Part shown: in pieces, positions 2,931 to 55,028 of the stretch
Layout of the letters: each line of letters opens with the position of its first letter
Position numbering within the stretch: the first letter of the stretch is position 1
Source of the DNA: Psammoneis japonica
Taxonomy: Eukaryota
Length of the DNA stretch: 64,000 nt
Direction of reading: 5' to 3'
NCBI GenBank assembly: GCA_008632985.1
Contig: QPGO01000011.1
Span: forward strand, 62,001 to 126,000
Position numbers and translations under genes: made by a program
Notes under the pieces: model-generated
Seen by the model: only the letters and a program-made list of their open reading frames with translations
Databases searched by the model: none
What the model was told of the DNA's origin: nothing

Positions 2931-3006
2931 GCCTCATGCGATGCTTTCGAGGTCATTGATCGCAACAGGATTGCTTTCTACATAACATGACTTTGCATGC
3001 TGCCAC
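2931..3006 (+). repeat. Left copy of a ~70 bp direct repeat bracketing the 12.7 kb TpA-depleted block
   Basis: gcctcatg...ctttcgaggtcattgatcgcaacaggattgctttcta...acatgactttgcatg matches 15693-15763. Confidence 0.9.
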
Positions 3007-3480
3007 TGGTTGGGTTGTTGTGCAGGTGTGCTGTGGAGGCAGAACAGCTCCCACCAATTCTTCTTGTTTCATCCCTTGAATGCACAAACAATGTGTTTTC
3101 TGGCAGGACGTTCAAGGAGGGGCACCCACCAGCGCTCCTGCTGGTGACTTCATCAGGCCATCATTGCAGGGGTGGTCATCAGTGCTTCCAAGCCCAGTTG
3201 TTTCAGTGTCTTCTTGAGCAGCAGTCCTTTGTTTGGCTTCAACCCAATGAGAGTGGACACCACCCACATTGGTGGCACCTGCCTTGTGGCTGCTGTGCAA
3301 AGAAAAAGACAAAGAGACAAGGCGGCCGCTCTCTCTCTCTCTTGGGAGCAGCAGCGACAGCATCACCCAGCTGAAAAAGCAAAAGCTCCATTTTGTGGCT
3401 TTTTTGTGTTGATGTGGCACAAAGGTGCTTGACTCTTGTGTGTCAGCATGGCACAAGAGTGCTCAAAGGACTGGGGACAG
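3007..3480. other. Left part of TpA/CpG-depleted island 1
   Basis: No TA dinucleotide seen in ~470 bp, few CG, TG/CA-rich. Confidence 0.8.
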
Positions 3481-3714
3481 AGTCGAGATGCAGTCCTGCA
3501 GCTGAGTGGGATGGATGAGACCTCGGAGGTTGGCGGCAATGTGAACAGCGACAGAGGCAAACAGACGCTTGTTGAAAGTCATTGTCTAGAAATTGTGACG
3601 AATGTCGTTGCTTCTGTTTGAATCGATTTTGTGATGAGCCAATTATTTCGAAGAGAAAATCTGAGTCTGGGTTGCAGTCGTGAGATGCGACCAGAATGAC
3701 GTTGAGTCGTGACT
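3481..3714 (-). repeat. 3' LTR of copia element 1
   Basis: Ungapped match to 10472-10705 with 12 substitutions; termini AGT...ACT. Confidence 0.95.
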
Positions 3715-3735
3715 CTCCCTCTCAACCGAGAGAGC

Positions 3736-6700
3736 TCACCAGCCCATGAGAGCCTTTCTGGCCACACGGAACGCATCGGTCCGTAGTCCCTTCGTGAGCT
3801 GATCGGCTGGTTGCTCTAGAGTGCTGATGGGTTGGATGTCGATCTCCAATTGTTCGACTTTAGTCCCAAACCAGTGGCACGGGATGCCGATGTGTTTGGT
3901 TCGCGGAGACAACTTGGGCATGCGTGCGAACTTGAGGCACGCGGAGTTATCTTCGTACACAATGGACGCAGGTGGGACATTCTGCTCTACAGGCGAGTCA
4001 TCGGTGCCTTGGGTTGCGAGCTCAAAAGCCTTGGAGTGAGTCGTGATGGGGTTTTGGCAGTCAGACTTTCCGAACACGTGGTGGTTGAGCTCCTTGAGAA
4101 CTTCACGAATGGGGATGAGATCGCGCATGGCTTGAGAAAGTGCGACATGTTCCGCTTCCACAGTCGACAATGCCACAAGAGTCTGCAGCTTGGACACCCA
4201 GACAAGCGGGCAGCCGGCGCAGCAGACAAGGTGTCCAGTCCTGGACTTGACAGAAACTGGGTCTTGACCATCTTCCACACCAAACAACCCCGCGAAGTCA
4301 GAATCGACGTAACAATCAACTCGATGATCTTGCGCAGGCTTGAGAATGAGACCTTCAGTGGCAGTTGCTTTGAGGTGTCGGAGCATCCGCTTCACTGCAG
4401 CAGCATGGGACGCTCGGGGCGCAAACGAGAATCGAGCTGCTTGATGTGTGGCACATGCAATGTCTGGCCGGCTGTTCGCTGCCAAGTGCATCAACATTCC
4501 AACAACTGAGCGACAATCGCAGGGTTCATCAAAAGGCAGGCCGTCCGTGTCGGCACCAATGGCCGCAGGCAGAGCTGGAGTAGATGCTCCATTGCAATCC
4601 TGCATCTGTGCGGCACGCAGGACCTTGTCAATTAGACTGGGTTGAGTGAGTGGAAATCGACCCTCGGAGAGCTTTTCGATCTTGACACCGAGAAAGTTGC
4701 CGACTTCTCCTTCGTCTCTAAGTTCAAACACGTGGCGATGTTCATCGTCGGAGACTCCTAACTTGCGAATTTCGGCTTCTAGAGCTTCAGCTGAAGCTCC
4801 AGCAAAAACGGTGTCGTCGACGTGCACCACACACATCATGCCCTCTTTGAAATGCAAACAGGGATCTATGGCTGAAGGTGCCCATCCGTGCTCGGTTAAA
4901 CCAGCTCGCAACTTCTCGCAGAAGCCCTTGGGAGACTGTTTTAGGCCGCACAGTCCTTTCAAAAGTTTGAGAACCATGTTGAGTCCCGACCTTGGCGCAA
5001 ATCCCTTCGGCGGTGTTACACAAACTTCCTCGGCGACATCAGCTTGGCAAAAGGCTGTGGCACAGCCCACCTGTCGTGCAGTCCATCCCTCCTTTAATGC
5101 CGCAGTGAGCATGAGTCGGACACTGGACCATTGCACAACCGGCGCGCAGGTTTCGAAGCAGTCGACTCCTTCTTTCTGCAAGTCACCGCGGACGCAGTGT
5201 CGGGCCTTGTACTTGAGAGGGGTTCCATCTGGGAGTCTCTTGAGCTTTGGTGCCCATGTGCCTGGAAGTGCATTCACACGCGGCTGACGCTCGACTGCTT
5301 TCCAGGCTCGACGATGTGTGAGTGCGTTGACTTCAATTTTCATCGCCTTGATCCATTCGTCGGCATCCGGACCTTTCAGAGCATTGTGTGACAAAGGCAT
5401 GTCAGGGTCCTTGGTTTTCTTGCTAGCTGCGCAGGCTCGTGGATTGCCGACATTGATGGTGCCACTGTCCAAATCCGTCTCGAGAGTCGCCAGATACACT
5501 GGTTGAGCCTCGTGTCCGATCGGCAGTGGCATTTCCTCGACGGAGCTGAAGCAGACCTCATCTACAAACTTGGCAGAGTTGAACTGTCCCTTGGTTGACC
5601 GTGAAGACCGTCGCAGCCCTGGTGCTCCCTCTGGATTCGTCATGGGAGGTGTCTCGACTGGGGGAGGAGCTGTTGGTTCCGTCGGCGCTTCGGGTGGCGG
5701 AAGTCCATTGCTGTCTTGAGGTTCAGGTGGCTGAATTGGCGCAGAGTCCGCAGAGTCTGCAGGAGTTTGAGTCGCAGGTGGGACTGGTGGCGTTGGCTGC
5801 TGAGTCGCAGGTGCGACTCGATCGGCAACGTCGTCGCGAGAAATGGGTGAATCCGGCACAGTGATCGATGGAGCAGGCTCAAAATGCCCGCAAATGCGTG
5901 TTGCTCTGGCCAGTTCTCGTTCTTTACGTTGACGCTCTGGAGGGGTGAGCCACTCATCGTGCAAATGAACTGCCTGATCCTTCTCCAGAGGGATGCATGT
6001 CGATTGGTTGAGGCACAAGTGTTCCCAGTGATCAGGTGGATCCGTCTCCCTCTCGATTGATGGTGCGGCAGTGAAGAGATCGTCAAAGACCACATGACAC
6101 TGAGGTGCAACACTGCCAGTTTGAAGATTGAGGACCAAAGGAACCTCACTGGAATGGATGGCACTGAGTCCCACGAACAAAGCGCGACGAGTGCGAGGCT
6201 CCCAACGCGGGAGCTTCTTCCCGGAAGCGAGGGTCGGGTCAAGTATGTACGCTGGACATCCCCATGTGTGAATGTCGCGCAACCGATGTCTTGGCACTGT
6301 CGAACCGGTGAAAATGTCCGCTGGGCAATGTCCTTTGGAATTTGGGGTGACATTGTAGACATGCGTGGCATGAGAAACTGCCATGGGCCACAGGGAGCTG
6401 TCAATTCCCCCCTTCCAGTGGATTGATGCATGAAGCAACATCGCTCTCGCCATGTTGGAGATGCTGCGGACACCCCGCTCTGCGACGCCGTTCTGATGAT
6501 GGGCGTTGGTTCCACAAAAACGGAGACGTTGTTCATGTTCTCGCACATGTTGTGCAAAAGCGTTGGCCTTGAAAGCGCCACTGTCGGTAAGAAAATCTTG
6601 GACGATGACCCCGTGGTCCAAAGCATGTTTCTCAAACGCTTGCTTCACGCGCATCGTCTCAACAGTGGAGAAACCCAGTTGGTGCTCGACCTGGACACAG

Positions 6701-7420
6701 CCAGAGGCGTGGTCAACAAAGATGCAACCGCCCTTGAATTGCTTGGACGTGGCTTTGCCATAAGAGTCGAAGGTGCGGCCCAAAAGGCGCGACTCAAAAT
6801 GATCAACACTGACAGCCTGACCCGGTCGAAGATGGTCAGCTCGAAGGGCCCCGTCGCGTTCAGGGACTGTCGACTTGTGAGTGGATCCAAGAGAGCGTCC
6901 ATGACCTTTAGCATGTTCGCACACCTCGCATCTTGGGTGGTCACACTTCGCTGCGGACTTGAAACGGTTCGAAAGGAACGGAACTGCGCAGAGAAGTGCT
7001 TGGATGCGACCAAAGTTCAAATGGCCAAAACGGGCGTGCATTTCAAGAAGAAGCTTTTGGCCTGCCGTGAGGTTTTGATTCTCCTCGTTGAGGATCTGAA
7101 GGTTCACTTGAGGAGCGGCAGATGCGCCCTTGGTCATCGACGCAATGGGCAAGTGGCTTGATGGATGATGTGGCACGACCAACTTGCCCATCCCGTCAGT
7201 GTGTAAACGGAAAGTGGTTTCATCGCCCTCACACTTCCCACGTGCCCCCTTCTCTTCGTTGAAGAGGCGTTGAGGCGACAGCAGGCGCTGACGGGCTCCA
7301 GGGACGCAGCATGCCATGGTGTTCAGTTGGATGGCAGCCCCACTCGGCGTTGTGAACACCCACGCAACCGGACCGGTGCCCTGGATGGTAAGACCATTGG
7401 CAATCCCATTGATCTGCAGT
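3736..7420 (-). pseudogene. Copia pol (end of protease, GAG-pre-integrase, integrase, RT, RNase H) with conserved Tyr replaced by Cys/His
   Basis: HARFGH..CEVC, SVDHFES, TDSG, NGVAER, HVDD (for YVDD), DSDFAG, EAEH, EDNSAC, ADQLTK; frameshift near 7420. Confidence 0.92.
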
Positions 7421-10309
7421 CACAGGCCCCGTAAAATCATCTTTGTCGGGGGTGACAGCCAATGTGGCACCAGTGTCCATGACGACCGTGAGAGCCTCGT
7501 CCGACAGACCGATGAGTGCCTGCGGATCGGATGCAAGGAGGTCGGCTTGTGATTGTCCGGTGAGCAGTTGGATGGTGGAGGTGTCACAGACGACTGGTCT
7601 AACACTTGCTTCCTCCAATGGTTCCACAGGATCTTGAAAATGGGCAGTGTCCACGATGTGATGCGGCAGACAGAGCTCGTCAAACCGGAAGAAATCCGGG
7701 CTGAAGTCCTCAAGAGCGTCAAAGAAATGCTTCTGGTCGTCGAGAGGTTCCAGTTCCTCACAGGTGTCAAAGAAGGCTGATTCGTCCATCGCATCAGACC
7801 GTTCAGCTGCTTCCAGGCTCTCCCAGTGGGCCTTGAGACGAGTGCTCAGTGCGTGTGACGGATGGCGCACGACAAACTCGGTGAGCACTTGCGTGCCTTT
7901 GATCCTGTGATGTTCGAACAGTGACCCCGTGTCTGACACTATCCGGTCATCTAGCTCTTCCACAATGTGGTAGACTTGAGAGCCAGCGGTCGAAAAACGA
8001 CTTGGCACGTTCGAGAATGGATGCTCGGGCTGTTGACCGGCGTAAACTGCTGACCACACCATCACTGCAACGGATGGGACCATCCAGGAGGCTGGAAACC
8101 CGTGCAAAGTTGGGAGTTTGCGCTGGCGGCGTAGAGCTCGAGGGACACATGGGATCGGAGCAAAGCAAAGATGTGGCACCGTTTCCCAAAACATGGCGGC
8201 GAGCCAGAATGTGAACAGCTTGACTCGACCCAAGAGTGAGCGACGCGAAGTGGGCTCGTCTTCGACGTCCTCGTGACAATCATCCGCATCCAGGACCTCT
8301 GGATCGTAGAAATCAAAGCCACGATACGCAACACACGGAGGTGAGTCGTAGCATGCGTCTTCAAAGTGTACGTCGTGTTCAAGGATGAGATCCAACTTGG
8401 TGTCGTCTGACAGCATGTCCGTCAAATGTGCGGGAGCGTCAAAGAACTCATCTGGATGCTTGACAGAGTACAGCTTCGAGGCCGGAAACAACTCAATAGC
8501 CGGTGGTTCGTTTTCAAAGGTAGAGAAAGCGTCGGAGTGTTCGTAGAAGTCATCGGCGTCTTCGGGAGTGACAGTCTCAACCACGATGGGAGACACGACT
8601 GGAGCCACGACTGAGGTGAGTGCAGGTGGGCTCGTTTCGATGCAAACCACCTCAGTGCCAACGACTGCATCGCTCTCCCTCTCGGCCGAAGAAGCCGGAG
8701 TAACAACAATTGCAGCAGTGACAGGGGCGGAACAGAAATCCGGGTCGGCAACGGGATCCGTAGCCGCGCACCACATTCCCGTGAAAACCAACTCGTTGGG
8801 GTCGGATTCGTCTCCCTCTGGTGCCTTGGCAGTCTGAGCGGGCGGACCCATGGGCACGCCACTGTCCGGATCAGCAACGGAAGACAAATTCCCGACTGGG
8901 GTCTCCTTGGGAGGTTGCCTGCGGTCGTCGGCATGTTCCGCGGTAGAGTGCTTCTGGCAGATTCCAGGTTTGTCGGCACCCTTCGCCGTGCACGTGGCAC
9001 ACCACTTCCATTCCTTGCCATTCTTATCCTTCTTCGTTTCGCCGTCAAATTTAGTACGCCAGGCAGCGATGGGTCGCCTCTTCTTCTTGGAAGGGTCGTC
9101 TGCAGGCGGCGGTTTGGGAGGAGGATCGTCGCGCGGCGGTTTGGCGTTGCACTTCGGACACGTCTTCTTGGTGCACCCCTTGAGACCGCAACCACAACAG
9201 TGCTTCATCTTCCCAGGGCCATCCGTAGTCGAAAGATTACTCTCGGGTAGCTTGGCAACTAATGCAGGCCATTCCCCGTCCTTCACGAGTTCGTTGTGTT
9301 GCTCTTGAATCCACGCAATGACACCGGCCGGTCCGAGCGTTTTGCAATCGCCATCGGACACGATGTCAGCAGGATTCTTGAGGCGGCACTTGCGTTCCAC
9401 AGCCTTGACGTCGTCGAGCTTGTTGTAGACTCGGCGATTGAAGCATTCAGAGGACGCAGAGGAGATCTTGTGGAGCAGCTTGGAGCTTGTGTTCGCCGGA
9501 AGCGCGCAGTCGGTCTGCATGATTTTCATGATGCGAAGAGCTTCGGCAGCAAAGTCCGTGCAATCCTCGCCGGGACAGTTGACCAAACTGAGGTCTTCTG
9601 GCTGCTTCTTAGCCGTCTCAATGTCCGTTAGAGCGCTGGCATTGCAAGTGTCGAGAGCCATCATGAATGGAACAGATCCAGGGTAGTCTTGGCAGTCCGA
9701 AAGATGGTTGAACTTGGTCTCGATTTTCTCGCGAAAGGCATTAGTGGTTCTTGAGTGAACGAGAAGTTGAGAGAGCCCGATGTCGTCGAGCTCGATCTCG
9801 TCGTACTTGGTGTCATCGGCAGCTGCTTTCCCAACCGTGTGCTCGTTCACGAGATCGGTCACAGTGAACTCGTGAAGATGGTCGAAGACATGTTGAACCT
9901 TGTCGTCGCTGTCCTTGACATGGTAGAACGTCTGCTGACCGTGGGCTTCTACTAGATCTCGAATGGTCTTGACGAAATGGTCCTTGTCAAGCTCGTTGAT
10001 GGGACCGTCCGAAATCTCAAGTCGACCGTTGAACTTGGAAGTCATTGCGGAAGCTTGTTGATCACGGAGAGATCATTCTATCGAGTCGAGAGCCTTGGGA
10101 TGACGGCGCTGAGAGGCGAATCGGCAGGTTCTGTCGTTGGATTGTTCGCAGTTGTTGTTGAGTTTGGAACCACCAATGTAAACCCCGTGGGTTGGGTGAA
10201 TTCCACCACGCAACGGCTTGGTTGGAGCCGGAGGAGCAGTCGCCGCGGCGTTGGCGGCCATTGCATCGGCAAACGCCTTCGCCAGAACATCTGGATCGAT
10301 GGCAGCCAT
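7229..10309 (-). pseudogene. Copia gag with Zn knuckle, long acidic/hydrophobic insert and protease (DTGA); in-frame TGA at 10073-10075
   Basis: ORFs 10073-10309 and 7229-10045 are in frame, split by one TGA (probably from CGA); CCGCGLKGCTKKTC, WKWCATC...H, VVMDTGAT. Confidence 0.85.
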
Positions 10310-10471: not shown

Positions 10472-10705
10472 AGTTGAGATACAGTCCCACAGCTGAGTGG
10501 GATGGACAAGACCTCGGAGGTTGGCAGCAATGTGAACAGCGACAGAGGTAAACAGACGCTTGTTGAAAGTCGTTGTCTGGAAATTATGACGAATGTCGTT
10601 GCTTCTGTTTGAATTGATTTTGTGATGAGCCAATTATTTCGAAGAGAAAATCTGAGTCTGGGTTGCAGTCGTGAGATGCGACCAGAATGACGTTGAGTCG
10701 TGACT
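10472..10705 (-). repeat. 5' LTR of copia element 1
   Basis: Matches 3481-3714; followed on the minus strand by PBS-like (T)GGTTGCAGAG. Confidence 0.95.
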
Positions 10706-13700
10706 GACAGATCGCATCTTTTCCCTCGCAGGCTTCAGCAGTGCATTTGAAGGTGCTTGCATTTGCTTTGTTTTCCTGTTGTGCAACTGGCGCAGCTTAA
10801 GCCACTGCCCCTTCCACCACCTCATTTTGGGTTGATGGCCATCACAAGTTTCAATCTCCAGGCCTTGACACAACTTTCTGGGTGGTTCCCTGGGTTTCTT
10901 CTTCAGTCAGCTGTTTGGGGCCGTTGCTTTCAGCCCTCAGCCCCATCATTCCTGCCTCAAGCAAGACTGGCTGCTGTGCTGCCAAGGTGCACAATGAGCA
11001 CCTGGACACCAAGTCTGGATGTCATGTTGCCAAAGTTGGAGCTCTTCTCTCTTCTCTTTCACTCAACACCAAGAAAGATGCCATCTGTTGTCATCAGGGA
11101 GCTTTTTCAATGCTGTCAGAATCTTTCAATCAACGAGCATGGTTGAGCCCTTGCAATGACAGCCTGGCTTGTGCTTGGACACACCAGCCTTTTTCTTTGA
11201 TGAGCTGTGTTGGTGCCACTGGCCAGCACTTCATGAGTGACTGCGTGCGCAGCTGGCCCCAATTGGCGGGGAGAGCAGCAGCCTTCTTTGCCAAAGCAGC
11301 CGAAACAAATGCACACACAACTTTCTGATGGCAGCTCTAGATTGCATTGCCAAGGCCTCACATCATCTTAAAATCCACCCAGTGGGTGGTGTGCACCTCC
11401 TTCTCAATCTGATGCTTGGCTCTTTGAGCTGCAGCCAGCAGCTGTGCTCCTCAACTGCTCTCCTTGCAAGGAGGAAGGCATTTGAAATGCACGGGCCACC
11501 ACTGTCCCAAAGGTTGGTGCTGACAGATCTTGGATCTTGAGTTGTTTTGCTGGCATGCATGTGCTTTCCTCATTCTTGAGTTGCGTGCCTGAGTGCAGGA
11601 AAGTGGGCTCATTGTCAATGGTGGTGTTTGTGGCTCGTGGCTCTGGAGACATTTCAGATTGTGTCTCTGTTGGCTGCACAATGTGCAGAGACACTTTCTT
11701 TGCAGATTTTGTTTGTGCATTACCCCAGTTGCTTGTTGCCAGTCATGTCAGGAGCTGCAGTGTAGTTGCCAAACCAGACCCCCCCCCACATGGTGCCTTT
11801 CCAAGGAGAGGTCTTGAAACTTGCAGCCAGCATGTTCAATCCAGAAGAAGAGTCTGCGAAAAAGTGCACGCCAAGACCACACTTTTTTGTGGCAATTTCC
11901 AGTTTTTCCACCCATCCAGGTTAGAGAAAGCATTTCTTTTCCATGCCAATGGCTTTGAAGAGAAGTTGGACACTGCATTGATGTCATCCCAATGTGGCAG
12001 ATTTTGTCCATGCTGTGTGCAGCACATCCAAAGGCTTGCAAAGGGTGCAAAGTGCAGCGATGAAAATGACTGCTTTGTTGCGCCGTTTTGTGCATCCAAT
12101 GATGTGCATTCTTGCAAACACTTGTTTTTGTTCTTCTGTGTTCAGCAGCTCTGCCATTTTGGGTCATGCATCCAAAAGATTCGTCACTGCTCACAACTGT
12201 CATTTCAGTGTGAGCAGCGGCCACATTGCAGTGGGTTGGGCATCAAAGATGCCGTGCTGTTTTGAGCTCCAGCTCACACCCAAATGTTGTTCCATGTTTC
12301 ACAATTTTTGCTGTGATAGCCCTTTGTGTGTCATGTGTGCATCTTAAGCTCTTGGGCCCAAATGAGTTGTTCATTGCCAAAGCTCACTTGATCAAATCAA
12401 AGGGGGCAGAGATGTGACATTTTGCCTGCCACACAAACACAGGTGCTTGGAGCAATGGTTTTTGCATGTGACGAAGGAGGTGCACTGCAGCTTGCTTGGG
12501 TTTTTGCTTTCTTTTTGCTGCTGGCATCTTGGTCATTTTTGTGAGTGTCAAATTTCTTCTGGCATTTCTCCTGAGAGCATCAAGTTGCATCTTGAATGCC
12601 TTGGACACTTGGGAAATGCATGTGGATTGTCTCCCAGAAGACACCAAGCATTTGCACTTTCTCTTTCTCCCTTTTGTCAGTGACTTGGAAGTGCTGCATG
12701 GTCTGCTTCTTGTTTTTGTGAGACATCTGAACAAATTCCAAGCAGAGCTTGGAAAGATGGTTGTGCTTTCACACTTGGCTTCATCCTCCTTTGCATGTCA
12801 ACAAATCCCCCGCCACAAGCCTTGTCTGGCAAGACAGGCAATCTGGTTTGGCAGTGTCTTTTCTTCAGATGCATTTGAAAGATTGTTTTTCTTTTCATTG
12901 CACTGCTTTTTTTTTCAACACCTCTTGTGTTCTTGCTTGACAGGGCATGGTCTGGGTGTCATTGCAGGCTTCAGAAGACAGGCTTCCAAACACAGCATTG
13001 TGCGGGGGGGGCACTCTCAGCATCTGGCAAAGCCATGCTTGGTTCATTGCCGTCAGCTTGAGAGGTGGGCACCATCACAGGGAATGTTGATGAGGCAGCG
13101 TCAGTTGCTTTTTTTGCAGTCAAAGCCAGGACATTTGAAGAAGCTGCAACTTCTGATGGAAAGGTGCTGGGTTCATTGCCTGCTTTTTGAGTGGTGTGGC
13201 CTCATGTCTCATCTGTCAAGAAAAAAAGTGTTGGTGGGACAGCGTCAAAAAATGTTTTCTTGTGAGAAGCTGTGCCAGGAGCATCTGATGGCTGGACAAA
13301 GAAGGCAGTGCCATGTGGCCAACATTTTTCATTGCAGCCACAGCAGGTGCACCCAAAGAGGACATGGTTTCTGATGGCAGCAACCAAGAGAGAGCAAAGC
13401 TTGGAGTTGTTTTCAAACAAGATGTTTTCTTTTTGACACACTGCTGTGTTTCATGAAAAGGCTTTTTGGTGTGCTGGCAGCAGATGATGGAGCCATTGAC
13501 AACTGGGAGCAACCCAGTCAGTGCACAGCTTGTGGTGCTGGTGACAATGGCGTTGTCAACATGTGCTCCTAACTTGACAAACTTCTTGAGTGAGTGTGGC
13601 TTCTTGCTCATGCAAGCTTTGGAACAAGCTTGGCAAAATGTGCTCTTTGAAGACAGATCATCATCACCAGACCTGCTCAGCTTGCTTGGTGAGATTGTGC

Positions 13701-15692
13701 CATTGATGCAAACAAGAGCATTGTCAATGCTGCGCTCTTTTTCAATGGCACATGTCTCCAGCAAGGTTGTCCCCTTGCCCCCAAGGCAGCATGATTTTTC
13801 TTGAATGGATCATGACAGGGACAAACTCTCACCCAGCTTCTTGTTGAACAGCCCACTGTGCCTTTGTGTGCACCATGTTCAGCAAGAAAAGCATTGCCTT
13901 TGGGGCCACATTGTGGCAATGCACAGCTTTTGACCTGCAAATGGCAACAAAGTGCAGCCAGGCTTGGCAGCATTGTTGCGCTTCTTTGCAACCTTGTCAC
14001 CTGCTCCATTGTTGTTTTGCACAGTCAAAGACAACAATGTCATTTTGCTTGTTTGGTGTTTTGCCTGCCTCTTTGAGCAGCTGCAGTCTGTGGCATGCAT
14101 GCTGACCTTAGCTTGGTGCTTTGACAGCTGCTTTGTTGTCTTTTTGTGTGGGGCACAATGCAAAAAAGACAGAAGCTGCTGCAGGAAAGAAGCCGCCAAA
14201 CAAAATGTTTTTGATGCAGCCTTTCCACAGCCTGCAACAAAGGATTTTTTCTTTGCAGTTGCCAAGGGTGCAGGAGGTGCTGCTTGAGCTGTGGCCACTG
14301 CCAAAGCTTTCACACGCAGCTTGCACCTGATGTGTTGAGTGCAGGGTGGTTGGCCACTTGGGTTGTCCAATGATGGCAAAATCAGTTTCCACATGGATGT
14401 CTTGCAGACTCAAAGAAGGACAGCTGCTCCAATCCATTTGAGCATGGATTTCAAATGAGTGTGATGACATGATTCCAGATTTGATCGTCGATGGTTGGGA
14501 GCTCCCGTCCATTGCACTGTTGGGTTTCATGCATTGTCCGGTGACAAAGCACAGCATGTGCCACATCTTGAAGCCAAGCTGCATTGACGCCATGGGGGAA
14601 AAAGAGCAAAGTGTCATGAAACAAACCCAGCGATTGCAGGCTCATTTGTGCAGCGATCATGAGAGATCTGCAAAAGAAGTCAGCAAACACCCTGCTTGTT
14701 GCATGCCCAAATGCATCATGACAGTCAATGGCACTGAGAAATCCAGCACAACAATTGAAGCGAGCACTGTTTCACAGTGGTGCAACTGTGCTCTCATCTT
14801 GGTCAATGTCGTGGCCATTGATCTGCAAACAAGCAAGTGTCATGGCAGAAGATGTGGTGCTTTTTGTTGTTCTCTCAGCGGTGCATGCACAGGGCACAGC
14901 AGCTTCAAAATGCCATGTTGTGCACCGCAACAACACACGACATGAAACACAAAGTGACAATGTGTGAACCTCAAGCATCCAGGAGGTGGCAGCCATTTAA
15001 CTCGCCCAAAGCAGCCCAGAGATGGGGTTTCTCAACTTGCCAAAATCAGGCGATTGCACCAAATCTGAGCAGCCACCATCATCCACCCCACAGCTTGCGC
15101 ATGGCAAACTTTTTCAAAAGCTCATCATCAGAGAGATTGTGTGGGAACATGCAGAATGTGGCACAAACAGGTCATGCAAGCAGGTGAGCAACATGCACGC
15201 TGCCACACCTTGGAAGAAAGCAGCAGTGCCCGCTCTTGCAATTTGCAACACCGCCGTGTGCCCCAAGCTGTGCAAACAAACCCAGCAGGCCTGTTCCAGC
15301 TCCAGGTGCTCTGCTTTTCATCACGCGATTTGCCGATTTTCTGCACAGTTCAGTGCAGTTAACTCCTTCAATTTTGATCGTTTCGAAAATCGAAAGGTGA
15401 GTGTGCAGCACACCCGAAAACACATGCAAAGTGCACACTCACCCCCTTCGATTTGGCAAAAAACGGGTTTGGAAAAAGTTGATTGCGCTGAATGCACAAA
15501 TTTCCAAATGATGGGAATCGAACCCGCGCTGAGCACCTGGAGCTGGAACAGGCCAGCAGGCAGCAGGCCTTCTTCTTGCAACAGCCCCCAATGCCCAACA
15601 ATGGGCCCTGCAACAGAGGAGAAGGTGAAAACTCAATGTTGTGCACAATGGAGGTCATCTGGCGTCGACTTCGAGCGAACCTTTGGTCAGTC
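10706..15692. other. TpA/CpG-depleted island 1 (right part); degraded sequence with gene-like relics
   Basis: About 12 TA in ~5 kb versus ~4 per 100 bp in neighbouring genes; many overlapping Cys/His/Gln-rich ORFs. Confidence 0.9.
15288..15554. mobile_element. 267 bp MITE-like element with 24 bp perfect TIRs and 4 bp TSD
   Basis: ggcctgttccagctccaggtgctc (15288-15311) is the reverse complement of 15531-15554; AGCA on both flanks. Confidence 0.8.
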
Positions 15693-15899
15693 GCCTCATG
15701 CTTTCAAGGTCATTGATCGCAACAGGATTGCTTTCTAACATGACTTTGCATGTTCTGCTGCCAGCATTACAGCCCAGTCACAACTCTTGCCAGTAGGTCG
15801 TAGGGACATTTATCATGAATTCAAGGTCATTGATCGCAACAGGATTGCTTTCTGAACCATTACTTAAGACACTGGCATTCGGCATTACAGCCCAGTCAC
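15693..15899 (+). repeat. Right copy of the ~70 bp direct repeat (15693-15763), a third partial copy (15820-15853) and an 18 bp duplicate (15764-15781 / 15882-15899)
   Basis: Direct comparison with 2931-3006. Confidence 0.9.
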
Positions 15900-16840: not shown

Positions 16841-18050
16841 CTATGACGCATTTTCAGAGTCGTCCTCTTCCTCTCGCTTTGATTCTTCTAGTTCCTGCTC
16901 TTGTAAGCTCTGAAGTAATGGCGGGTGCGATGGATGCTGAGGACGCTCCTCTCGATACAAGATATAATGCTGGATGATGAAAACGACCTGATGTATTCGC
17001 AAACGGAGAAGGGTTGTTCAATAAGGGGTAAGTTCACTTTTAAGGGTGCCCACCAAACAGATGAATGCAACTTACATCAAAGAGAATGGAAACAAAGCCT
17101 AGACCCAGCTTTGCGGGATTCCCCGACATGGCCGTCCAGTCTCCCATATCTGCGCAATCCAAAACCAACTGCAAGTCACTCAACACCCCACCGGTAAAAT
17201 CCAACAAGACGTTCCATATGCTCCATCCGACAGTCGACTTTCGACGAATATTCAACAAAACTTGTGGAATGTACTTGATGAGAGAAATCATAATTTTAAA
17301 GAAACTGAGCAGGTACAAGTATCCCAACCAATCATACCCAAGTGACGAGGATCCAAACGCAAATAGCAACAGCGCGCCGACTGCAGCCGTTGCTAGTATT
17401 CCAATCATGAGCATACCAACCGCTCTAGATGGCTTTAATTGCCGTATACCACCATAGTATGCAATTTGCAAAAGTGTCAAGGACGAAAGCATCAAGGCAT
17501 GCACGGCAAACGCCACATCGTTGGTTTGCACCGTCACGTCCGTATGGTGTTTTTGTCGGTACAAGTCTTGGATTCGTGTGCTCCACCGAAACGCTACATT
17601 ATACACAGAGTAACAGGCAAATCCAAAAACGTTCAAACCACAAAAGTCAGCCGAGAGACCCGTCGTTTGCTTGCGTCGATAATTTGTAATGACTTGAGGA
17701 TAAAACGAAACACTCCAAGCCATGAAATACGTGTACCCAATGCATGACGACAACCAGCGATACCATGGAGTTGAAAGACTTGAGTTTTTCGGCAATATGG
17801 ATCCCAAAATGAAACCCACAAGGACAAGCAATGACCATCCGACAAGGACCCGTCGAGTTTGATTTCTGGATAACTCATCTCGCGTGTGTTGTAGCCATGA
17901 ACAAAGTCCAGAGCAGCGCGGTCGACGCTCGGTTGTAGTCTCTTCTTGTGCCACAGAAGACACTTCAGAATCAACTTGTTGATGCTGATCACCAAGCAGA
18001 GGCGTGGAGGCTGCATCATGCAGTAGCGTCATGTCATATTCTTTGTCCAT
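16841..18050 (-). CDS. CTNS: Cystinosin (PQ-loop lysosomal cystine transporter); intron 16988-17075
   Basis: AWSVSFYPQ, GLSADF, KYIPQ, STVGWSIWNVLLDFTGG, NPAKLGLG; GTAAGT..CAG intron restores the QHYILYR C-terminus; N-terminal dileucine (TPLL). Confidence 0.93.
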
Positions 18051-21306: not shown

Positions 21307-21643
21307 TGTCGCGGAACATGACTCAAGCGGGACTCAAGTGATTGGGTCCCGGTCACGAGTGAAGGGTCGTGCCACCGATGACCACAGAAATCGGAGCCGA
21401 CCACGAATGCCGCAATCGATCTTGAGGAACAAGATCGATGAATCGAATGGCCGAGGAGCGGCGATTTGACAAGATCGATTTGGTAAGATTGATTTGGTAA
21501 GATTGGTTTGACAAGATTGAAGTCCAGAAGAAGTAGAAAAGCAGATCATAATTTAGCGAGAGTGAGAAATGTGAAGACTATTAATTTTAGTTTTGTGTGC
21601 TACTGACAAGGTGTTAGTAGTATCGGCATCTGGTTGTCCAACA
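21307..21643 (+). repeat. 5' LTR of copia element 2
   Basis: Identical to 26811-27147; contains ~4 copies of a 14 bp unit (gatttggtaagatt-like). Confidence 0.97.
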
Positions 21644-21702
21644 CGATATATATCGACAGTTTGTGGCAACACTACATTCGAGAGTAGTAAGTGAGAGAAG
21701 CG

Positions 21703-24700
21703 ATGAGCAAGGAAGAACAGACCTACGAGACTTCTTTGTCGTGGAGCGGCAAGAGAGAAGACTTCGAGAATTTTTTGGTGAAATTCGAGGCATTCGAGAG
21801 CGACCACGGTTGTGACGAAGCAACCGATGTGGATCTAGGAGATAAGCTTCTCACCAAGGCGGAATACGTGAATGGAAGAAGAAAGTAACGCAAGCTAATG
21901 GTACAGAGACCGAAGAAGACCTCACAAAGGAGGATAAGAGGTTGTACAAGCTGAACGCGAAATCATTTTCGAAGATCATCCGTGCGTTGCCTGAAAACTT
22001 GATCAAGGCCTGCAAGAACCAAGGTGGACCCAAGAAGTCCGTTTATTTGATCAAGGAGTACCTCAAGAAACACTACTCGGAGCAGAATGTGGTAGATGAT
22101 TACCAAAACCTCTACAAGAAGAGGTTGGAGCTAGAACCTGGAGAGTTCGAGATAGCGCTGTTCTATTTCAACGAGTTGGAGGATATTACTCCAAGTTGGG
22201 AAAGATTGATGAAAAGTATCGCTTAGATGAGCTTCAGTTGAAGACTGATATCTATTCAAAAGTCCCGGATCAAGGTAACTGGTCCTCTTTCAAGTCCGAG
22301 TATCGCAAGGACGGCGCGATGGAGAACATTGCCTACAGTGCGTTCAAGCAGCACTATGAACGGGAGTGGAAAGCTCATGGTCCACCAGGAGGATCTACTA
22401 CATCTATAGATCGATCTTCTGGAGAGGATAAGACCCTAACTATGAAGGTACAGGGTAGCAAGTTTTTCCCGGGTAATTGTGGGAAGTGTGGCAAGAAAGG
22501 TCACAAGTCAAAATTTTGTCCTGACAAGAAGAACGCCAAGACGAAGAAATTCGATGGCGATTGCTTTTATTGCGGCAAGCATGGACATAGAGCGAGCGAC
22601 TGCTTCAAGAAGAAGAAGGATGAAAAGGAGAAAGACGAAGAAACGAACGAGGTTACACTCGGAGTGTTCGATTCCGTCGACTTGGTTGAGGAGGGTAAGG
22701 ACCCTATTCCAGACTCCTTCTTCGATACCTTCGATACTAAGCCTGCAGTTCGAGACGATGAGTTCGAGAGAGAGCTTAAGAGGTGGGATACTCGGTCTGG
22801 ACTGGGTTACGGCTACGATAGTAGCGGCGAACGCGCGCTGTCATGGTACGAATGGAGCGAGATGGCGGACGATGAGGACGAAGAAGACGATGACGGCATG
22901 AGTATGCCGGAGCTAGAAGGTCCTTTTGTTTCTGATAAGGTCGAGGATGAAAGTATCCCGCCCTTGGAACCGCGGTATGATTCCGACAGCGATTCGGATG
23001 ATGACGAGTCATTAGAGCTGATCGGCACTCAACGCAAGTGCACCAACTGTGACGGGCCTGGACATGTCTATCGAGGCTATCGCACAACGAAGAAAGTTCA
23101 AGACGAGGACAAGGGAGACGAGGAAGACAGTATCCCGCCCTTAGTATCTCGTGGCGGTTATGATAGCGACTCGAGCGACGACGAGTCGGTTGAATTCGAG
23201 GTTGTTTGCTCGTATTGCGGACAGCCTGGACACGAATTCTGCACTCCTTTCCAAGAGTTTTGGAATAACCCGGATGAAGAGAGCGATGATGACAGTATTC
23301 CGACTCTAGAGAGTGGTATGGACTCGGATAGTGATTCAGAGTCTGAGTTTGATTACGATTCGGACGACGACTATGACGAAATACTGATGTCCGGTGCGCA
23401 GTATGAACCAGAACGTGGCGGTGTAAGGCTACTATTGGACTCTGGCTCGACAGCACATACAAAGAGGTCTGCTGAAGGGATGCGGAACCTCAGGGAAGTG
23501 AACAAAGTCATGAAGGACGCACACGACGGGAGTTCGGTAGCGAAGCTCCAAGGAGATTTTCCATTTACGCGTCAGAATGGGGACGGTACAGTAGTTATTA
23601 CTGAGATGTACGTCCAGCCAAAATTTTCACATAACATTGTGAGTCTGACGAAGCTATTTGAGAAAAATTGCAAGCTGAGTCCGACGACTGATCCCAAACG
23701 AGCCATTGTTCTCGAGTGCCCTGATGGCACGGAATTAATTTTCGAAAAATCAGCGAAAGATGGGCTGTTTTATATGGAAGTTGACTCGCTGACGGATGTG
23801 TCCGAAATGACCGCAGACGTTTCCGATGGACAGAAATCTGGACAAAAAGAGTCGGACAAGAAAGTCCATGTTAACCGCGCACACATTTTGCTGAACCACA
23901 TGGGAGAAAGCGCGATGAAAATGGCGGCAGCAGATCTCGGTTGGAAATTGACCGGTATACCCAAGACCTGCGAGTTCTGTGTCAAGGCAAAGGCTACAGC
24001 AAAGCCAACCGTGAAGGCTAGCGATAAGAAAGCGACCAAGCCTGGTCAGCGGCTCTACCTAGACACGTCAGGACCATACAAAGCGACGCGCGGCAAGAAT
24101 CGATATCATGTGATGATAGTCGATCAACTTACAGATCGACTTTGGTCGATGTTCCAAGCAAAGAAAAATGGTTTTACGGACGATATCAAAGCTTTATTGA
24201 CTAAGCTGAAGGGTCAGGGGTACCCAGTCGAGTTCTTACGGATCGACAACGCTCCGGAATGGGGTGCACTCAAGCCAATTTGTGATGAGCATGGGATCAC
24301 GATCGAGTATACCTCCCCTAATACTCCGCAGTTCAACGCGGCAGTCGAGAGAGCGTTCCCAACAGTGCGTAATATGGCATACGCGGTACTGAAAGCATCC
24401 GATTTCGACGACGCAGAGCAAAGTCGGCAATGGGCGAATGCGCTGCAGGACTGCACTATCGTTCGTAACTTGGTCCCACGTGGGGACTGGAGCAATGCTT
24501 ATGAACCATTTGGAGAAAAGCCACCCGTAAAAGCCGAAGACCTGGTAGAGTTTGGCGCAAAGGGGTGGATGGCCAAGAGAAACAAGATCAAGGCCAAGTT
24601 TCAAGATCGTGCCGAGGAGGTTCGTCGCGTAGGATACGCTGAGAATCACTCGAGCGATACGTATATTGTTCAAAAGTTATCAAATCGTCGTTGTGTGTTG

Positions 24701-26973
24701 ACACGCGACGTGGTATGGGAGTCTAAAAGACGATATGATCACCTAGACCCCGAGACAGTGGTCGAAAAGCAAACTCCGCGAGTAACTTGGGCGGACGACG
24801 CAAGACCGTCAACAGTGGTTGAAGAGATATCACGCCCCTCTCAGTCATCCGCAGACGACCCCGACTTTCATGATTCTCATTCACAAATTGAGGAGGGAGA
24901 AGAGAGTGCAACAGACGGCGAGGAATCAACGGATAGCGAAGAAAGTGACTCCGAGATGGGTGCGCCACCTGACGGACCAGGACAGACGGATAAAGAATCA
25001 GCTGTGAATAGTCGATTGGAACGCGAGTTGAGCAAGCTGAGGACTTCTTATAACCCAGCTGGTCTCCCAAGCGACGACGAGGACGAGGTAGAAGCGGTGA
25101 ATATGGTCGCAGGATATGTTGATCCGAAGAATGATCGCGAAGCGATGACAGGCGACGAAGCTGACGAGTGGTGGAAGGGTCTAGTCACAGAATACGATGG
25201 ATTTTTCGACTTGAGAACTTGGATACTGGTCAAGGAAGCCGAATTGAAAGGTAAAAAGATATCCAAGCCGCTATCAACGAAGAACGTCTACAAAAAGAAA
25301 TTACACGCGATAACAAAAGAGGTGCGGTATCGCGTGCGCAACTGCATTCGGGGGTTCGATATGATACCCGGAGTTCATTTCGATGAATCTTTTGCACCTA
25401 CTCCGACGGATCATACTGTGAGACTCATATTGGCGATATCATTATGGATGCTGGAACAGTTGGAAGTCGATGATATCGACGAAGCCGAGAAGGAGTGGAT
25501 TGTCGGGCATTTGTTCGATGTTGTGCAGGCATTTCTGAACTCAGAGATGACTGGACCACCTGTACATGTGCATCTTCCCCCTATGTGGAAGGAGTATTGC
25601 GAATATAAAGGTTGGGAATACAACGAGAACGATCTTATTTTGCTCGGAAAGGCGCAATATGGGCAAGTCGATGCCGCGAAGCGCTGGATTGATATGTTTG
25701 TCGGAATCATGACTGAAAAGGGTGGCGTCGAGCTTAAACGAAGCAAGACTGACCCTTGTGTGTTGTACCGTCATGATGACAAGGGGCAATTGGAGATTAT
25801 CATTTTGATTTATGTGGACGATGGTTTCATATGTGGGAGGCCGGAAGTCGTTAAGGAAGCCAAGGACTATTTGGCGAAGAGAGTTAAGATACTGGACATT
25901 GGACGAATCGACACTCATTTAGGAATTGATTATGAGTTGAAGAAAGACGAACACGGTTGGTACTTCGAGTGCAGCATGCGCAAGTACGTGGAGAAGATGG
26001 TTGCGGAGTACGAACAACGCTTCAAGAAGACACTTAAGGACTACGAGACACCTGGGGAGCCAGGAAGATATTGATGAAGGCGGACGAAGACCATGAGCCA
26101 GTCGAGCAAAACGGATATCGAGCCTTCGTCGGAAAGATCCTATATGCGATGTTGAAGGTCTTACCTGATTGCGCGAATGCGATTAGAGCGCTGACAATGC
26201 ATTTGACGAATCCAACTAAGGATCACTGGCACGCGCTGGACAGACTTATGGGACATCTGAAATTTCACTATCAGCCATTGAAGTTGAGGTCACCTTTGGA
26301 ATTAAGGAGCATAGGGATATTCGACGCTGAGTGGGGAACGGACAAGAATGACAGAAAGAGCATTTCGAGTGACATTTCCACACTGGGCGGTACGTCGTTA
26401 ACTAATTGGCAATCGAAGAAGCAGACCTCTGTGGCGCTGAGCAGTTGTGAAAGTGAGACCATAGCGGGCACGGCGTGCGCGCAGAGCATACAATTCCAGA
26501 ATCATTTATTGGAAGAGCTGGTAGGTACGGACATGTTGAAGATGCCGAGTTATGCGTACGGAGACAACGCCGCATCACTGTTTCTGGCTGTTAACAACCA
26601 AGTGGGACAGCGGACGAAACACATTCACATTCGTGATAGATATTTGGGCGAGTTGGTTCAACGTGGAGAGATTGAACCACGTCATGTCAGTACGGAGAAG
26701 AACCCGGCAGATGTCAACACCAAGAACGCGAAGATCGAAACGCACAAGAGACTAGCTCAGAACCTGTATGACGGATTCGTGATGGTTGAACCGGAACCAA
26801 TCAAGGAGGGTGTCGCGGAACATGACTCAAGCGGGACTCAAGTGATTGGGTCCCGGTCACGAGTGAAGGGTCGTGCCACCGATGACCACAGAAATCGGAG
26901 CCGACCACGAATGCCGCAATCGATCTTGAGGAACAAGATCGATGAATCGAATGGCCGAGGAGCGGCGATTTGA
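21703..26973 (+). CDS. Copia gag-pol polyprotein with three -1 frame breaks (probably sequencing errors); ends inside the 3' LTR
   Basis: CX2CX4HX4C knuckles, LLDSGST, H..LNH..CEFC, LDTSGP, RIDNAPE, AVER, YVDD, DAEW, ESE, GDN, NPAD. Confidence 0.93.
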
Positions 26974-27147
26974 CAAGATCGATTTGGTAAGATTGATTTG
27001 GTAAGATTGGTTTGACAAGATTGAAGTCCAGAAGAAGTAGAAAAGCAGATCATAATTTAGCGAGAGTGAGAAATGTGAAGACTATTAATTTTAGTTTTGT
27101 GTGCTACTGACAAGGTGTTAGTAGTATCGGCATCTGGTTGTCCAACA
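26811..27147 (+). repeat. 3' LTR of copia element 2
   Basis: Identical to the 5' LTR. Confidence 0.97.
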
Positions 27148-31669: not shown

Positions 31670-33049
31670 GGTCAACCTCTTATAATACCGGCACCGGTAA
31701 AAAGTTTGGCAGCAACAGAAAAAATGAGACGGTGATTTGCGCCGTTATTATTTTCGATTGGAAAAGGGCATTTTAATATTGTAACTACGTTGACGCATTT
31801 CTCAAATAAGCAATAAATGTTTCTTCATTTATTGTAGCACAAATGGTTTTATTCACATTCGTGCTTGCATGTGGATTTATTCATTTCAGTTGCCTCCTGC
31901 CGATTTTGAATTTCAAATTTCTCGAAGGCAGGACCATGGTTCAGGGGCTTGTGAACCACGACGAAAAAGCACCACGGATCCATCCTTTCAGTGGAATAAT
32001 GGAGGGAAGGAACTTCAAAGCATGAAGATTCAAGGTGCAGCGGGAAATGTTTCTGAAACAAGGGAGCACCAGCAAAAGAAGGGTGCCACCACACTGCGGG
32101 GCTTCAGCCCTGTCTCAGCAGAAGAACCAACACGAGCTGTGATGTGTGTCCATTTTTTTCTCCCTTTGTTTGATCCCATGGCACAGTTGGCAACTCCTTC
32201 AAAAATCAAACCTCAACAAGATTTTGTGCAGAGTGTGCTGTGTGCTTGTGTGTCTTTCTTGCACTGGTGCCAACACAAAAAACAACTCGGTGTGGAGGAA
32301 TTTTGCAGCTGATGCTGACTTCTCAATGATCACAAGCAAGAAAGGCCTTTTTGCAACTTTCTCAGGACAACAGGTCACTGTGCTTTCAGACATGGCATGC
32401 GCAGCTGAGAAGGAGTGTGCAGACAGTCTCTTGTTGTGTGCACAAACACCAGCAAAGGCATTTCTTCTTTTGCCTCCTGTGGTGGTTTGGCTCTCTTGTC
32501 ACGACAGTCACACACAACCCCAAAGAAGAGAGAGACAAGTTGACTCAACAGCTTGCACCAAGGATTTTGGTCTTGAGCCCTGTTCTTGGTGTTCTTTGCA
32601 GTGCTTGACCTTTGACTTTGGACACACAAGAGCTCTTGTTCTTTCAAAGCTGTGAGCGACCACCAAGGAGCAAGGCCCAGGAGAAGGATGGGGTTGTTGC
32701 TGACACCACTCCAGGCTGTGTTCATCTTGGGACAAGAAGGTGAGAGGCTGGTGCAATGGAGTTTGCTCAGCAGGGCTGCACTGCTGGCTCCTCCTTTTGC
32801 AAAAACTCTTGACATGAAGTGAGGAGGGAGGTGTGGAACCTGGGTTGGATTGTGCTGACACATGCGAGAGTGTCGAGTTTTGGAGCTTGCCCTTTTTATG
32901 TGCCACCCTCACAAATGAAAATGTTGCACACATTTGTGAGATGCCAGTGCAAGACACACGTGCAGATTTGCCCACTGCACACATTGTCACATCACTGACC
33001 TCATTGCGCCACTTCCCATGTGGCCCCCATGATCGTCACACGACAATGC

Positions 33050-33305
33050 TGCTGAGCTGCAAATGTGCACAAGCATCTGGTGCATTGACTCACAATGCAT
33101 TTGTTTTGTGTTGCCTGGTGGGGGTCAAGCCACAATCTGGTGTGTGCAAAGTGCAAAAAAGTTGGCAAGTGTGGAGCTGAAATGGGCAGTCAGCTTCAGA
33201 GAACAGTTTGTTCTCATGAGCACAGAGCCACCAAGTGTTGTTGGGACCAAGTTGGTGTCTCTTCTCACACATGGTCAAGCAATTGGCAATTGCCAAGGAC
33301 TGCAA
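33050..33305 (+). repeat. Dispersed ~240 bp repeat, copy A
   Basis: gctgagctgc..aaatgtgca..gcattgac..ttgttttgtgttgcctgg..tctcttctcaca..aattgccaaggactg shared with 34948-35185. Confidence 0.8.
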
Positions 33306-34947: not shown

Positions 34948-35185
34948 GCTGAGCTGCACCAAATGTGCAAGTCTTGCTCAGGCATTGACCCATGATGTGA
35001 TTGTTTTGTGTTGCCTGGAGGTCAAGTGACAATCTGGGGTGTGCAAAGTGTGAACAAGTTGGCACATGCAGAGAGCTGACAAGATGGGCAGGCAGTCAGA
35101 TTCAAAAAACAACCTGTTCTCACAAGCACAGCCCAGTTGTTGTCTCTTCTCACATGTGGGGAGGAGAAATTGCCAAGGACTGGTG
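34948..35185 (+). repeat. Dispersed ~240 bp repeat, copy B
   Basis: Gapped alignment to 33050-33305. Confidence 0.8.
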
Positions 35186-54749: not shown

Positions 54750-55028
54750 TATTTTGTCAAGAGGGATGAAGAGTGAGTGAGCGATCGTTTCGCACAGCGA
54801 TGACAGCGCGTGACAGAAAGATGTGATGAGCCGCATCGCTACTTTTATTCCATATATGAAGACATTCATACAATCATAAATAAATGTCTTTATTAATTTA
54901 TATATATATGTTTATCTATTCGCGATGGAACTTCTCGCCGAAAAAGCCGCGAAACAACTCCAATGACACAACTCGAAATCGTGTCGCTTGTGTTTGCTCT
55001 CACAACAAATCATTACACTCTGTGTACC

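Follow-up and report, generated by a model that had tools for sequence, protein, structure and literature searches.

How can a retrotransposon gene lose most of the tyrosines that are conserved among its homologs while its reading frame stays open over 1207 codons? This question is raised by a 64,000-nt stretch of the genome of the diatom Psammoneis japonica (assembly GCA_008632985.1, contig QPGO01000011.1, positions 62,001 to 126,000), which is called the window below. The element in question occupies positions 3481-10705 on the minus strand and is, judged by its sequence, a Ty1/copia retrotransposon with long terminal repeats (LTRs). A preliminary description attributed its state to "tyrosine erasure", by changes of TA to TG or CA in the codons of conserved residues. 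The phenomenon is larger than first noted and is a block-restricted, TpA-directed hypermutation of DNA, in a diatom. The target is the TpA dinucleotide and the loss of tyrosine is collateral, because LTRs, codon borders and noncoding neighboring blocks are affected too. The cause is probably a TpA-directed transition process that acts in place on the DNA.

Structure of the Copia Element

The features of the element are listed by position in the window. The abbreviation o/e stands for the ratio of observed to expected dinucleotides, ORF for open reading frame and RT for reverse transcriptase.

3476..3480, target-site duplication GACAG on the low-coordinate side, identical to the five bases at 10706-10710
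3481..3714, minus strand, 3' LTR of 234 nt, 94.9% identity to 10472-10705
3736..7359, minus strand, open pol ORF of 1207 codons (integrase, RT and RNase H), tyrosine-depleted, TpA o/e 0.16
4813..4824, minus strand, HVDD replacing YVDD, the catalytic motif of RT; His codon CAC at 4822-4824, Y in 29 of 29 homologs
7229..10045, minus strand, gag-protease ORF of 938 aa with a DTGA protease motif, TpA o/e 0.25, N-terminal matches by tblastn
7425..7440 (approximate), minus strand, frameshifting deletion in the protease region, where the homology to single-ORF relatives shifts frame
10472..10705, minus strand, 5' LTR of 234 nt, which pairs with 3481-3714 and adjoins GACAG
10706..10710, target-site duplication GACAG on the high-coordinate side, identical to the five bases at 3476-3480

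The domain order of the element is gag-protease-integrase-RT-RNase H. In this order, in its 234-nt LTRs, in the 5-bp target-site duplication and in the RVT_2 domain, it resembles the diatom Ty1/copia elements (CoDi groups) as described in the available part of PMC2806351. The RVT_2 profile, which the preliminary description had named as a check on the 1207-aa ORF, matches residues 685-930 with E = 7.4e-33 (Pfam). Matches to gag_pre-integrs and SH3_retrovirus lie upstream of it, both below their cutoffs. The same ORF aligns end to end with diatom copia polyproteins (tblastn), with an identity of up to 61%, and the named sources of the closest copia proteins are Fragilaria crotonensis. For the gag-protease ORF, tblastn gave matches to the N-terminal parts of three diatom copia polyproteins (P0002, P0014 and P0017), and a Pfam scan gave no match.

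Loss of Tyrosine in the Pol ORF

All 11 altered motifs of the preliminary description were found again, with their positions and codons: HVDD, DCFETCAP, LCGLKQ, CRSVVGMLMHL, IACA, MLRHLK, RTGH, EAEH, QCHVVFDD, QPAD and NALP. The altered codon of QPAD is CCA, and 28 of 29 homologs carry L at that position. In NALP, the codon is GCA, and the homologs carry V or I there. The derivation of DCFETCAP from DYFETYAP stands only in part. The motif is present, but the origin of its first C from tyrosine is weaker, as 17 of the 29 close homologs carry F at this position and 12 carry Y.

Columns were considered conserved when a residue is shared by at least 80% of 29 diatom homologs, which gave 524 columns. 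The window protein differs in 77 of them. At tyrosine columns, 19 of 23 are changed (9 to Cys, 6 to His, 3 to Phe and 1 to Trp), compared to mostly 0-29% for the other residues, with Ile at 41%. When a consensus of 50% is applied, there are 34 tyrosine columns, in which the window protein has 13 Cys, 8 His, 5 Tyr and 8 other residues (4 Phe among them). Its tyrosine content is 0.58%, against a homolog median of 2.96% (range 2.54-3.90). This pattern of tyrosine loss is far beyond chance.

The preliminary description had suggested a scan of diatom proteomes for transposon proteins that are poor in tyrosine and rich in Cys and His. Among the homologs compared, none turned up. In an alignment of 121 sequences with 15 tyrosine columns, the window protein retains 2 of the 15, each of the 120 homologs retains at least 57%, and no tyrosine-erased protein is among these 120. 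The protein collection used is one in which the host has no close relative; the dynein heavy chain encoded by a neighboring host gene has a best identity of 59%, and a 52% match to it is named Cylindrotheca fusiformis.

TpA as the Target

The whole element contains 73 TpA in 7225 nt, which corresponds to a TpA o/e of 0.20, and has a CpG o/e of 0.93. TpA o/e is 0.52-0.64 in five control stretches of the window and in its second copia element. Among the 77 changed conserved columns, 30 are one TA>TG/CA step away from a codon for the consensus residue. A further 9 are one CG>TG or CG>CA step away, and 4 are other single transitions. In the remaining changed columns there are transversions, as expected of ordinary divergence from relatives with 45-59% identity. 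On the coding strand, there are 20 TA>TG and 10 TA>CA changes. The direction of change, which the preliminary description had deduced from established motifs, is upheld by the homolog consensus and also by sites at which at least 80% of the depth from other copies of the family reads TA (see below).

The same TpA event occurs in codons other than those for tyrosine, where it accounts for Leu>Pro (CCA), Val>Ala (GCA) and Ile>Met (ATG). It also acts across codon borders. The A>G changes at the first codon position comprise Ile>Val, Thr>Ala, Met>Val and Arg>Gly, and in 10 of 12 the preceding base is T (binomial p = 3.8e-5 against 0.25; the frequency of T at codon position 3, which serves as the baseline, is 0.247).

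The TpA that survived in the element are not a random sample. ATAT is absent from all 73, a 3' T is found in 14 of 146 strand views compared to 27.5% in the controls (chi-square p = 7.7e-6), and CTAN is commoner than expected. This points to a flank preference of the TpA process, measured against control sequence that is not the element's own ancestor.

Depletion varies along the element. The gag region at 7981-9980 is less depleted (TpA o/e 0.28-0.35, CpG o/e 0.98-1.12) than most of pol (TpA o/e 0.08-0.17, CpG o/e 0.72-0.90). Control DNA itself has an already low TpA o/e (0.52-0.64), and a weak genome-wide action of the same process is possible.

Change after Insertion

When an element inserts, its two LTRs are identical. 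Those of the present element now differ at 12 nt, and all 12 differences are transitions within 10 pyrimidine-purine (YpR) steps. No difference lies outside YpR steps in the 234 columns. As YpR steps hold about 47% of the LTR positions, 12 random differences would, at a transition bias of 2:1, all fall into this class with a probability of about 1e-6. The change arose in the DNA after this copy was made, because the LTRs, identical at the start, now differ only by YpR transitions.

The discordant YpR steps are TA/TG (3), TA/CA (1), CG/TG (2), CG/CA (2) and TG/CA (2). The concordant steps that remain are TA/TA (1) and CG/CG (10). From the ratio of half-changed to unchanged sites, we estimate that each LTR has lost about 0.67 of its TpA and about 0.17 of its CpG. 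These counts put the rate of TpA loss at about 6 times that of CpG loss and at more than 170 times the upper limit for all other changes. Back-calculation gives about 9 TpA per LTR at insertion, which is a TpA o/e near 0.5, the control value of the window. The two discordant TG/CA pairs also fit, since about 2 are expected from independent hits on TpA and about 0.2 from CpG.

An Open but Inactive Reading Frame

The preliminary description had claimed that the process cannot create stop codons. This was confirmed by simulation on the 1292-codon ORF of the second, young copia element of the window. With a TpA loss of 67% (111 changes on average), the ORF remained open in 2000 of 2000 trials. With a CpG loss of 17% added, it was open in 40% of the trials, and with 157 random substitutions, a total equal to that of the combined TpA and CpG run, it was open in 0.4%. 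A stop can come about only through CGA>TGA, by the CpG decay that runs alongside the loss of TpA. The pol ORF still has 18 CGA codons, and both ORFs of the element (1207 and 938 codons) are devoid of in-frame stops.

It had further been expected that the dead ORF stays open and would be annotated as an intact gene. It is open over 1207 codons, but it is not an intact polyprotein, as the close homologs are single ORFs of about 2100 aa. Tyrosine erasure need not be what inactivated the element, as a frameshifting deletion is also present in the protease region. The frame changes between GPVT(AD) and LQINGIANGL, several residues are missing, and a TGA is located directly upstream in the second frame. 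As a result of this deletion, gag-protease and integrase-RT-RNase H lie in separate ORFs. Thus, the element lacks the intact catalytic motifs and the single polyprotein of an autonomous retrotransposon: RT carries HVDD, most of the conserved tyrosines are changed, and the protease region is frameshifted.

Stages of Decay in the Window

A dinucleotide profile of the window at 1-kb resolution revealed additional blocks in which TpA is nearly absent. These are listed together with the young copia element.

2985..3475, old block A, left part, host of the copia insertion; no TpA, CpG o/e 0.15
10711..15740, old block A, right part; 5030 nt with 13 TpA (o/e 0.04) and 69 CpG (o/e 0.23), TG/CA o/e 1.68/1.96
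21307..27147, plus strand, young copia element, an unaffected internal control; 337-nt LTRs with 0 differences in 337
31900..36950, old block B; 5051 nt with 7 TpA (o/e 0.02) and 57 CpG (o/e 0.19)
53990..54750, old block C; 761 nt without TpA, CpG o/e 0.26

Overall, the old blocks have a TpA o/e of 0.00-0.04 and a CpG o/e of 0.15-0.26. Their borders are sharp (within about 100 nt), and those around the copia element lie beside host genes. TpA is spaced by a few tens of bases as far as 2983, as far as 31878 and again from 36952 on, with nearly none in between. The share of YpR steps among all dinucleotides is 0.231-0.249 in every region, and only the split between TA+CG and TG+CA varies. TA+CG make up about 7% of the YpR steps in block A, compared to 42% in the largest control stretch. 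A constant YpR total with an altered split is what transitions confined to YpR steps predict. TG and CA occur almost equally often in each of the old blocks (580/558, 613/563 and 84/83).

The young copia element is flanked by AAATT on both sides. It has a tyrosine content of 3.64%, an RVT_2 match with E = 3.3e-25, a TpA o/e of 0.64 and a CpG o/e of 1.18. From these features, it looks recently inserted and may still be active. Its LTRs have the ends TG...CA, and it codes for an ORF of 1292 aa (zf-CCHC and RVT_2), followed by an ORF of 300 aa. The window thus holds three stages: the young copia element, the intermediate copia element with an LTR divergence of 5%, and the saturated old blocks.

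The old blocks are complex sequence, in which no tandem repeats were found, and tblastn with three diatom copia polyproteins found nothing in them. Block B contains a direct repeat (33048-33225 and 34945-35131) whose identity is 74% at the DNA level and 88% once the letters are reduced to purine and pyrimidine. It has diverged mostly by transitions, because the second value is higher. BLAST in the purine/pyrimidine alphabet also showed an internal repeat of 150 nt in block B. A 31-nt motif is present three times (2949-2979, 15706-15736 and 15823-15853) with 0-1 mismatch, where none is expected by chance, and is found at both borders of block A.

Other Copies of the Family

The contigs of one public sequencing run (X1), which is possibly the assembly's own sample, were compared with the window. 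Three of them, with a word depth of 61-68, as in single-copy DNA, cover 10678-15292. They deviate from the window by 0, 1 and 2 letters, respectively, and by one additional base. The sequence of block A is real, because these contigs reproduce 4.6 kb of it. The TpA- and CpG-free sequence is thus not a base-calling artefact of long reads.

Over 3501-11000, the summed word depth is 3000-6300, compared to 59-74 in most flanking single-copy bins. This suggests that the copia family has many related copies, the summed depth not being a copy number. Over 15001-16000, the summed depth is 3654-9480, so that the 31-nt motif belongs to a highly repeated unit.

In total, the window differs from the X1 contigs by 103 transitions and 22 transversions. 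We considered the best 40 of 127 variant rows, in each of which at least 80% of the depth differs from the window, and 37 of these 40 are in the copia element. Seven are single sites with TA in the other copies and TG or CA in the window. At 11 sites, the other copies have kept CG, and at 2 sites, the window has kept TA. Another 12 rows pair up as six TG/CA doublets, and the last five consist of 4 transversions and 1 transition of another kind. Two tyrosine codons deserve mention. Tyr-18 is TAC in the other copies. For Tyr-1161, the window codon is TGC (Cys), but CAC (His) makes up 85% of the other-copy depth. This codon was therefore hit twice independently, and one of the hits is common to most copies.

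Other Features of the Window

A direct repeat of 208 nt (17178-17385 and 19840-20046, 88% identical) was considered as an old LTR pair that had escaped the process. This was rejected, as it is a duplicated segment of a PQ-loop gene. The repeat includes transversions and other ordinary substitutions; hence, it is no counter-example to the TpA process. The PQ-loop protein gene has an ORF at 17040..18050 (PF04193, E = 4e-36). An inverted repeat of about 90 nt with 83% identity (27195-27280 and 63001-63092) starts just past the right LTR of the young copia element. A tRNA scan of the 64-kb window found 0 genes.

Relation to Known Systems

In a literature search for a TpA-directed process, the only hit was a 2026 preprint on the chlorarachniophyte Bigelowiella natans (bioRxiv 10.64898/2026.01.13.699255), and no report on diatoms was found. 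According to the available part of this preprint, 230 of 231 mutations in two integrated viral regions were A>G or T>C in a mutation accumulation experiment. All of these fall on TpA, at about 1000 times the background, and affect giant-virus and virophage DNA. TpA-poor coding sequences of Bigelowiella are enriched for reverse transcriptase and DDE domains, and an ADAT2-like DNA adenine deaminase has been proposed. The case described here shares the conversion of TpA to TpG or CpA on both strands, a rate that is orders of magnitude above background, and regions that are poor in TpA and rich in CpA and TpG. In Bigelowiella, the process is confined to integrated foreign DNA, and here, in one window, it is seen in a copia element and in sequence with sharp borders. 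There are also differences. Bigelowiella belongs to the Rhizaria, whereas diatoms are stramenopiles. The process was observed there in mutation accumulation lines, whereas it is deduced here from sequence. The giant-virus region of Bigelowiella is 1.8-fold depleted in TpA, compared to a TpA o/e of 0.00-0.04 in our blocks. CpG is also lost in the diatom, and the available part of the preprint has no such report for Bigelowiella.

The process resembles repeat-induced point mutation (RIP) of fungi, as dinucleotide-specific transitions are there, and would be here, confined to repeated or mobile DNA, with skewed ratios and dead elements as the outcome. RIP, however, changes C>T, mostly CpA>TpA. 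It creates TpA, lowers the GC content and introduces many stops, whereas the process described here removes TpA, leaves the GC content unchanged or higher and gives rise to no stop codons. Fungal RIP was therefore rejected: TpA is depleted and both ORFs are without in-frame stops.

Those changes that are CG>TG/CA, and the scarcity of CpG in the old blocks, are explained by deamination of 5-methylcytosine at CpG, which is likewise consistent with the CpG-poor environmental loci described below. Such deamination cannot, however, remove TpA, which is lost here about six times as fast as CpG. For Phaeodactylum, the available parts of the respective publications report CpG methylation at a retrotransposon locus (PMC2806351) and 5-methylcytosine (PMC6604790). 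The available parts of these two publications and of 10.1101/2025.10.24.684338 contain no mention of TpA loss in diatoms.

In animals, APOBEC3 and ADAR edit one strand of cDNA or RNA of retroelements during replication, which leaves a one-directional signature. The likeness consists in a deaminase-type hypermutation of retroelements and in the preference of ADAR for U before the edited A. Here, in contrast, both directions are found in roughly equal numbers, and noncoding blocks are included.

Proposed Mechanism and Points against It

We propose the following mechanism. In integrated mobile or foreign DNA, the transition of TpA to TpG or CpA (A:T to G:C at TpA, on either strand) would be strongly accelerated, with ordinary CpG decay to TpG or CpA in parallel. 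The process would act on chromosomal DNA after insertion and would be confined to the inserted element. Its end state would be a sequence nearly devoid of TpA as well as CpG. An intermediate would be the copia element at 3481-10705, from which about two thirds of the TpA and about one sixth of the CpG are gone. Within ORFs, TAY (Tyr) would become TGY (Cys) or CAY (His), ATA would become ATG or ACA, GTA would become GCA and CTA would become CCA, while A at the first codon position would change to G after a T. TAA and TAG would be destroyed or turned into TGA. No new in-frame stop could arise from TpA, so that dead ORFs would stay open.

The chemistry is quite possibly adenine deamination, as has been proposed for Bigelowiella natans. 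We suggest, more tentatively, that this diatom lineage has a dedicated DNA-editing defense, with an enzyme that would deaminate adenine at TpA in silenced, integrated mobile DNA and that would be related or convergent to the Bigelowiella system. The role may thus be a genome defense tied to silenced chromatin. In a bolder form of this idea, a single enzyme might act on both adenine and cytosine and thereby remove both TpA and CpG.

A number of results weigh against an in-place process of this kind. (i) The data come from a single window of 64 kb, a single pair of LTRs that differ at 12 positions, and the contigs of one run. For the locus-specific share of the TpA loss, the evidence is the LTR pair alone, and editing of cDNA at integration could in principle also make LTRs differ. 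(ii) Part of the TpA and tyrosine loss in the family is inherited and was not made at this locus, because 85% of the other-copy depth reads His at Tyr-1161. Among the best 40 of 127 variant rows, only 37 sites of the element differ from at least 80% of the other-copy depth. (iii) That the old blocks are mobile DNA is an assumption. None of their 88 stop-to-stop ORFs of at least 70 aa reached a curated Pfam cutoff, and BLAST in the purine/pyrimidine alphabet, which is insensitive to transitions, found them unrelated to either copia element, with short matches only. (iv) TpA loss and CpG loss are not significantly correlated along the copia element (Spearman rho 0.46, p = 0.09, 14 windows). (v) Judged from the sequences at hand, the TpA process is not general in diatoms. 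In Phaeodactylum mutation accumulation, as far as covered by the available part of PMC6604790, the mutagenic contexts are CG, CC and TG, with a GC>AT bias and no TpA effect. The Cys/His signature is absent among 71 related environmental copia loci, 9 of which were checked for tyrosine, in a search that was seeded with peptide patterns holding a Tyr/Phe position and is thus biased against erased copies. Many of these 71 loci are poor in CpG (several with CpG 0.10-0.35) and have normal TpA. The only TpA-poor one, a metagenome contig of 1776 nt (L024), has TpA 0.18 and CpG 0.10. It keeps 8 of 21 aligned tyrosines, with one C and one H, and has two in-frame stops, so that it is not clearly a case of the same process.

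Alternative Explanations

The changes may also be a by-product of silencing. Base modification on silenced DNA would then lead to mispairing or error-prone repair at TpA, also in place. Candidates are N6-methyladenine and 5-hydroxymethyluracil, an oxidized thymine that favors TpA in dinoflagellates. The observed change is described equally well by T>C before A and by A>G after T, and the affected blocks are shared with CpG decay, the usual trace of 5-methylcytosine in silenced repeats. The flank preference of the surviving TpA fits an enzyme with a recognition context, without saying which. The lack of a significant correlation between TpA loss and CpG loss along the element speaks against this reading. 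We consider such a by-product unlikely, while taking it seriously.

It is rather improbable that the TpA-poor and tyrosine-poor state was mostly inherited from master copies, in which case the copy would already have been tyrosine-poor at insertion and would have been mobilized in trans or by segmental duplication. The high summed depth, the small number of differing sites and the prevalence of His at Tyr-1161 agree with such an inheritance. Furthermore, no indel variant is listed at the protease frameshift, which may therefore be shared between copies. The LTR counts, however, imply that about two thirds of the TpA were lost since the LTRs were identical, with a TpA o/e then near 0.5. Other copies retain TA at no fewer than seven single sites and Tyr at codon 18, and the TG/CA doublets, both between copies and between the LTRs, need independent hits. 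The other 87 of the 127 variant rows have weaker support, which is where independently decayed copies would fall, and the summed depth cannot be taken as a copy number.

It is very unlikely that the changes were made by ADAR/ADAT- or APOBEC-like editing of the RNA or cDNA while the element was being retrotransposed. Enzymes that edit A to I typically prefer a U ahead of their target A (bioRxiv 10.64898/2026.01.13.699255, available part), and hypermutated copies of a retroelement can each bear their own pattern of changes. Editing of a single strand would, however, give one direction of change, whereas both strands were hit here, with TA>TG beside TA>CA in the pol ORF and TG about equal to CA in the saturated blocks. 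For the same reason, RNA-level A-to-I editing, which would give A>G on the coding strand only, was rejected, given 10 TA>CA beside 20 TA>TG. In addition, noncoding blocks are saturated too, CpG decay accompanies the TpA loss, and the Bigelowiella signature arises on integrated DNA in culture, according to the available part of the same preprint.

An assembly or base-calling artefact has a negligible probability: modified bases can cause systematic miscalls in long-read assemblies, but the X1 contigs match 10678-15292 nearly letter by letter (albeit in what is possibly the assembly's own sample), both ORFs are in frame over their full length, and miscalls on two strands would be mixed and not clean TG or CA.

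Significance

A TpA-directed process acting in place on DNA, if this is what the window records, would have several consequences. A process known from one chlorarachniophyte would also exist in diatoms, a different major lineage that is ecologically dominant. In the diatom, it would act on LTR retrotransposons and would run to completion. The LTR pair yields a rough relative rate, with TpA loss about 6x that of CpG decay and >170x that of other changes. It also suggests a simple genomic test, which is a constant YpR total while TA+CG collapses into TG+CA.

This is also a practical caution for genome annotation, in which transposon ORFs that are dead but still open will be taken for genes. In such genomes, bias is to be expected in the dating of insertions by LTR divergence and in models of GC content. 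Whether eukaryotes have a DNA adenine editor becomes testable in a group of organisms with genetic tools. If the dedicated defense is real, it would be an old and widespread counterpart of RIP within the SAR supergroup, and algal genomes would be filled with long, open, tyrosine-poor dead ORFs that are called as genes.

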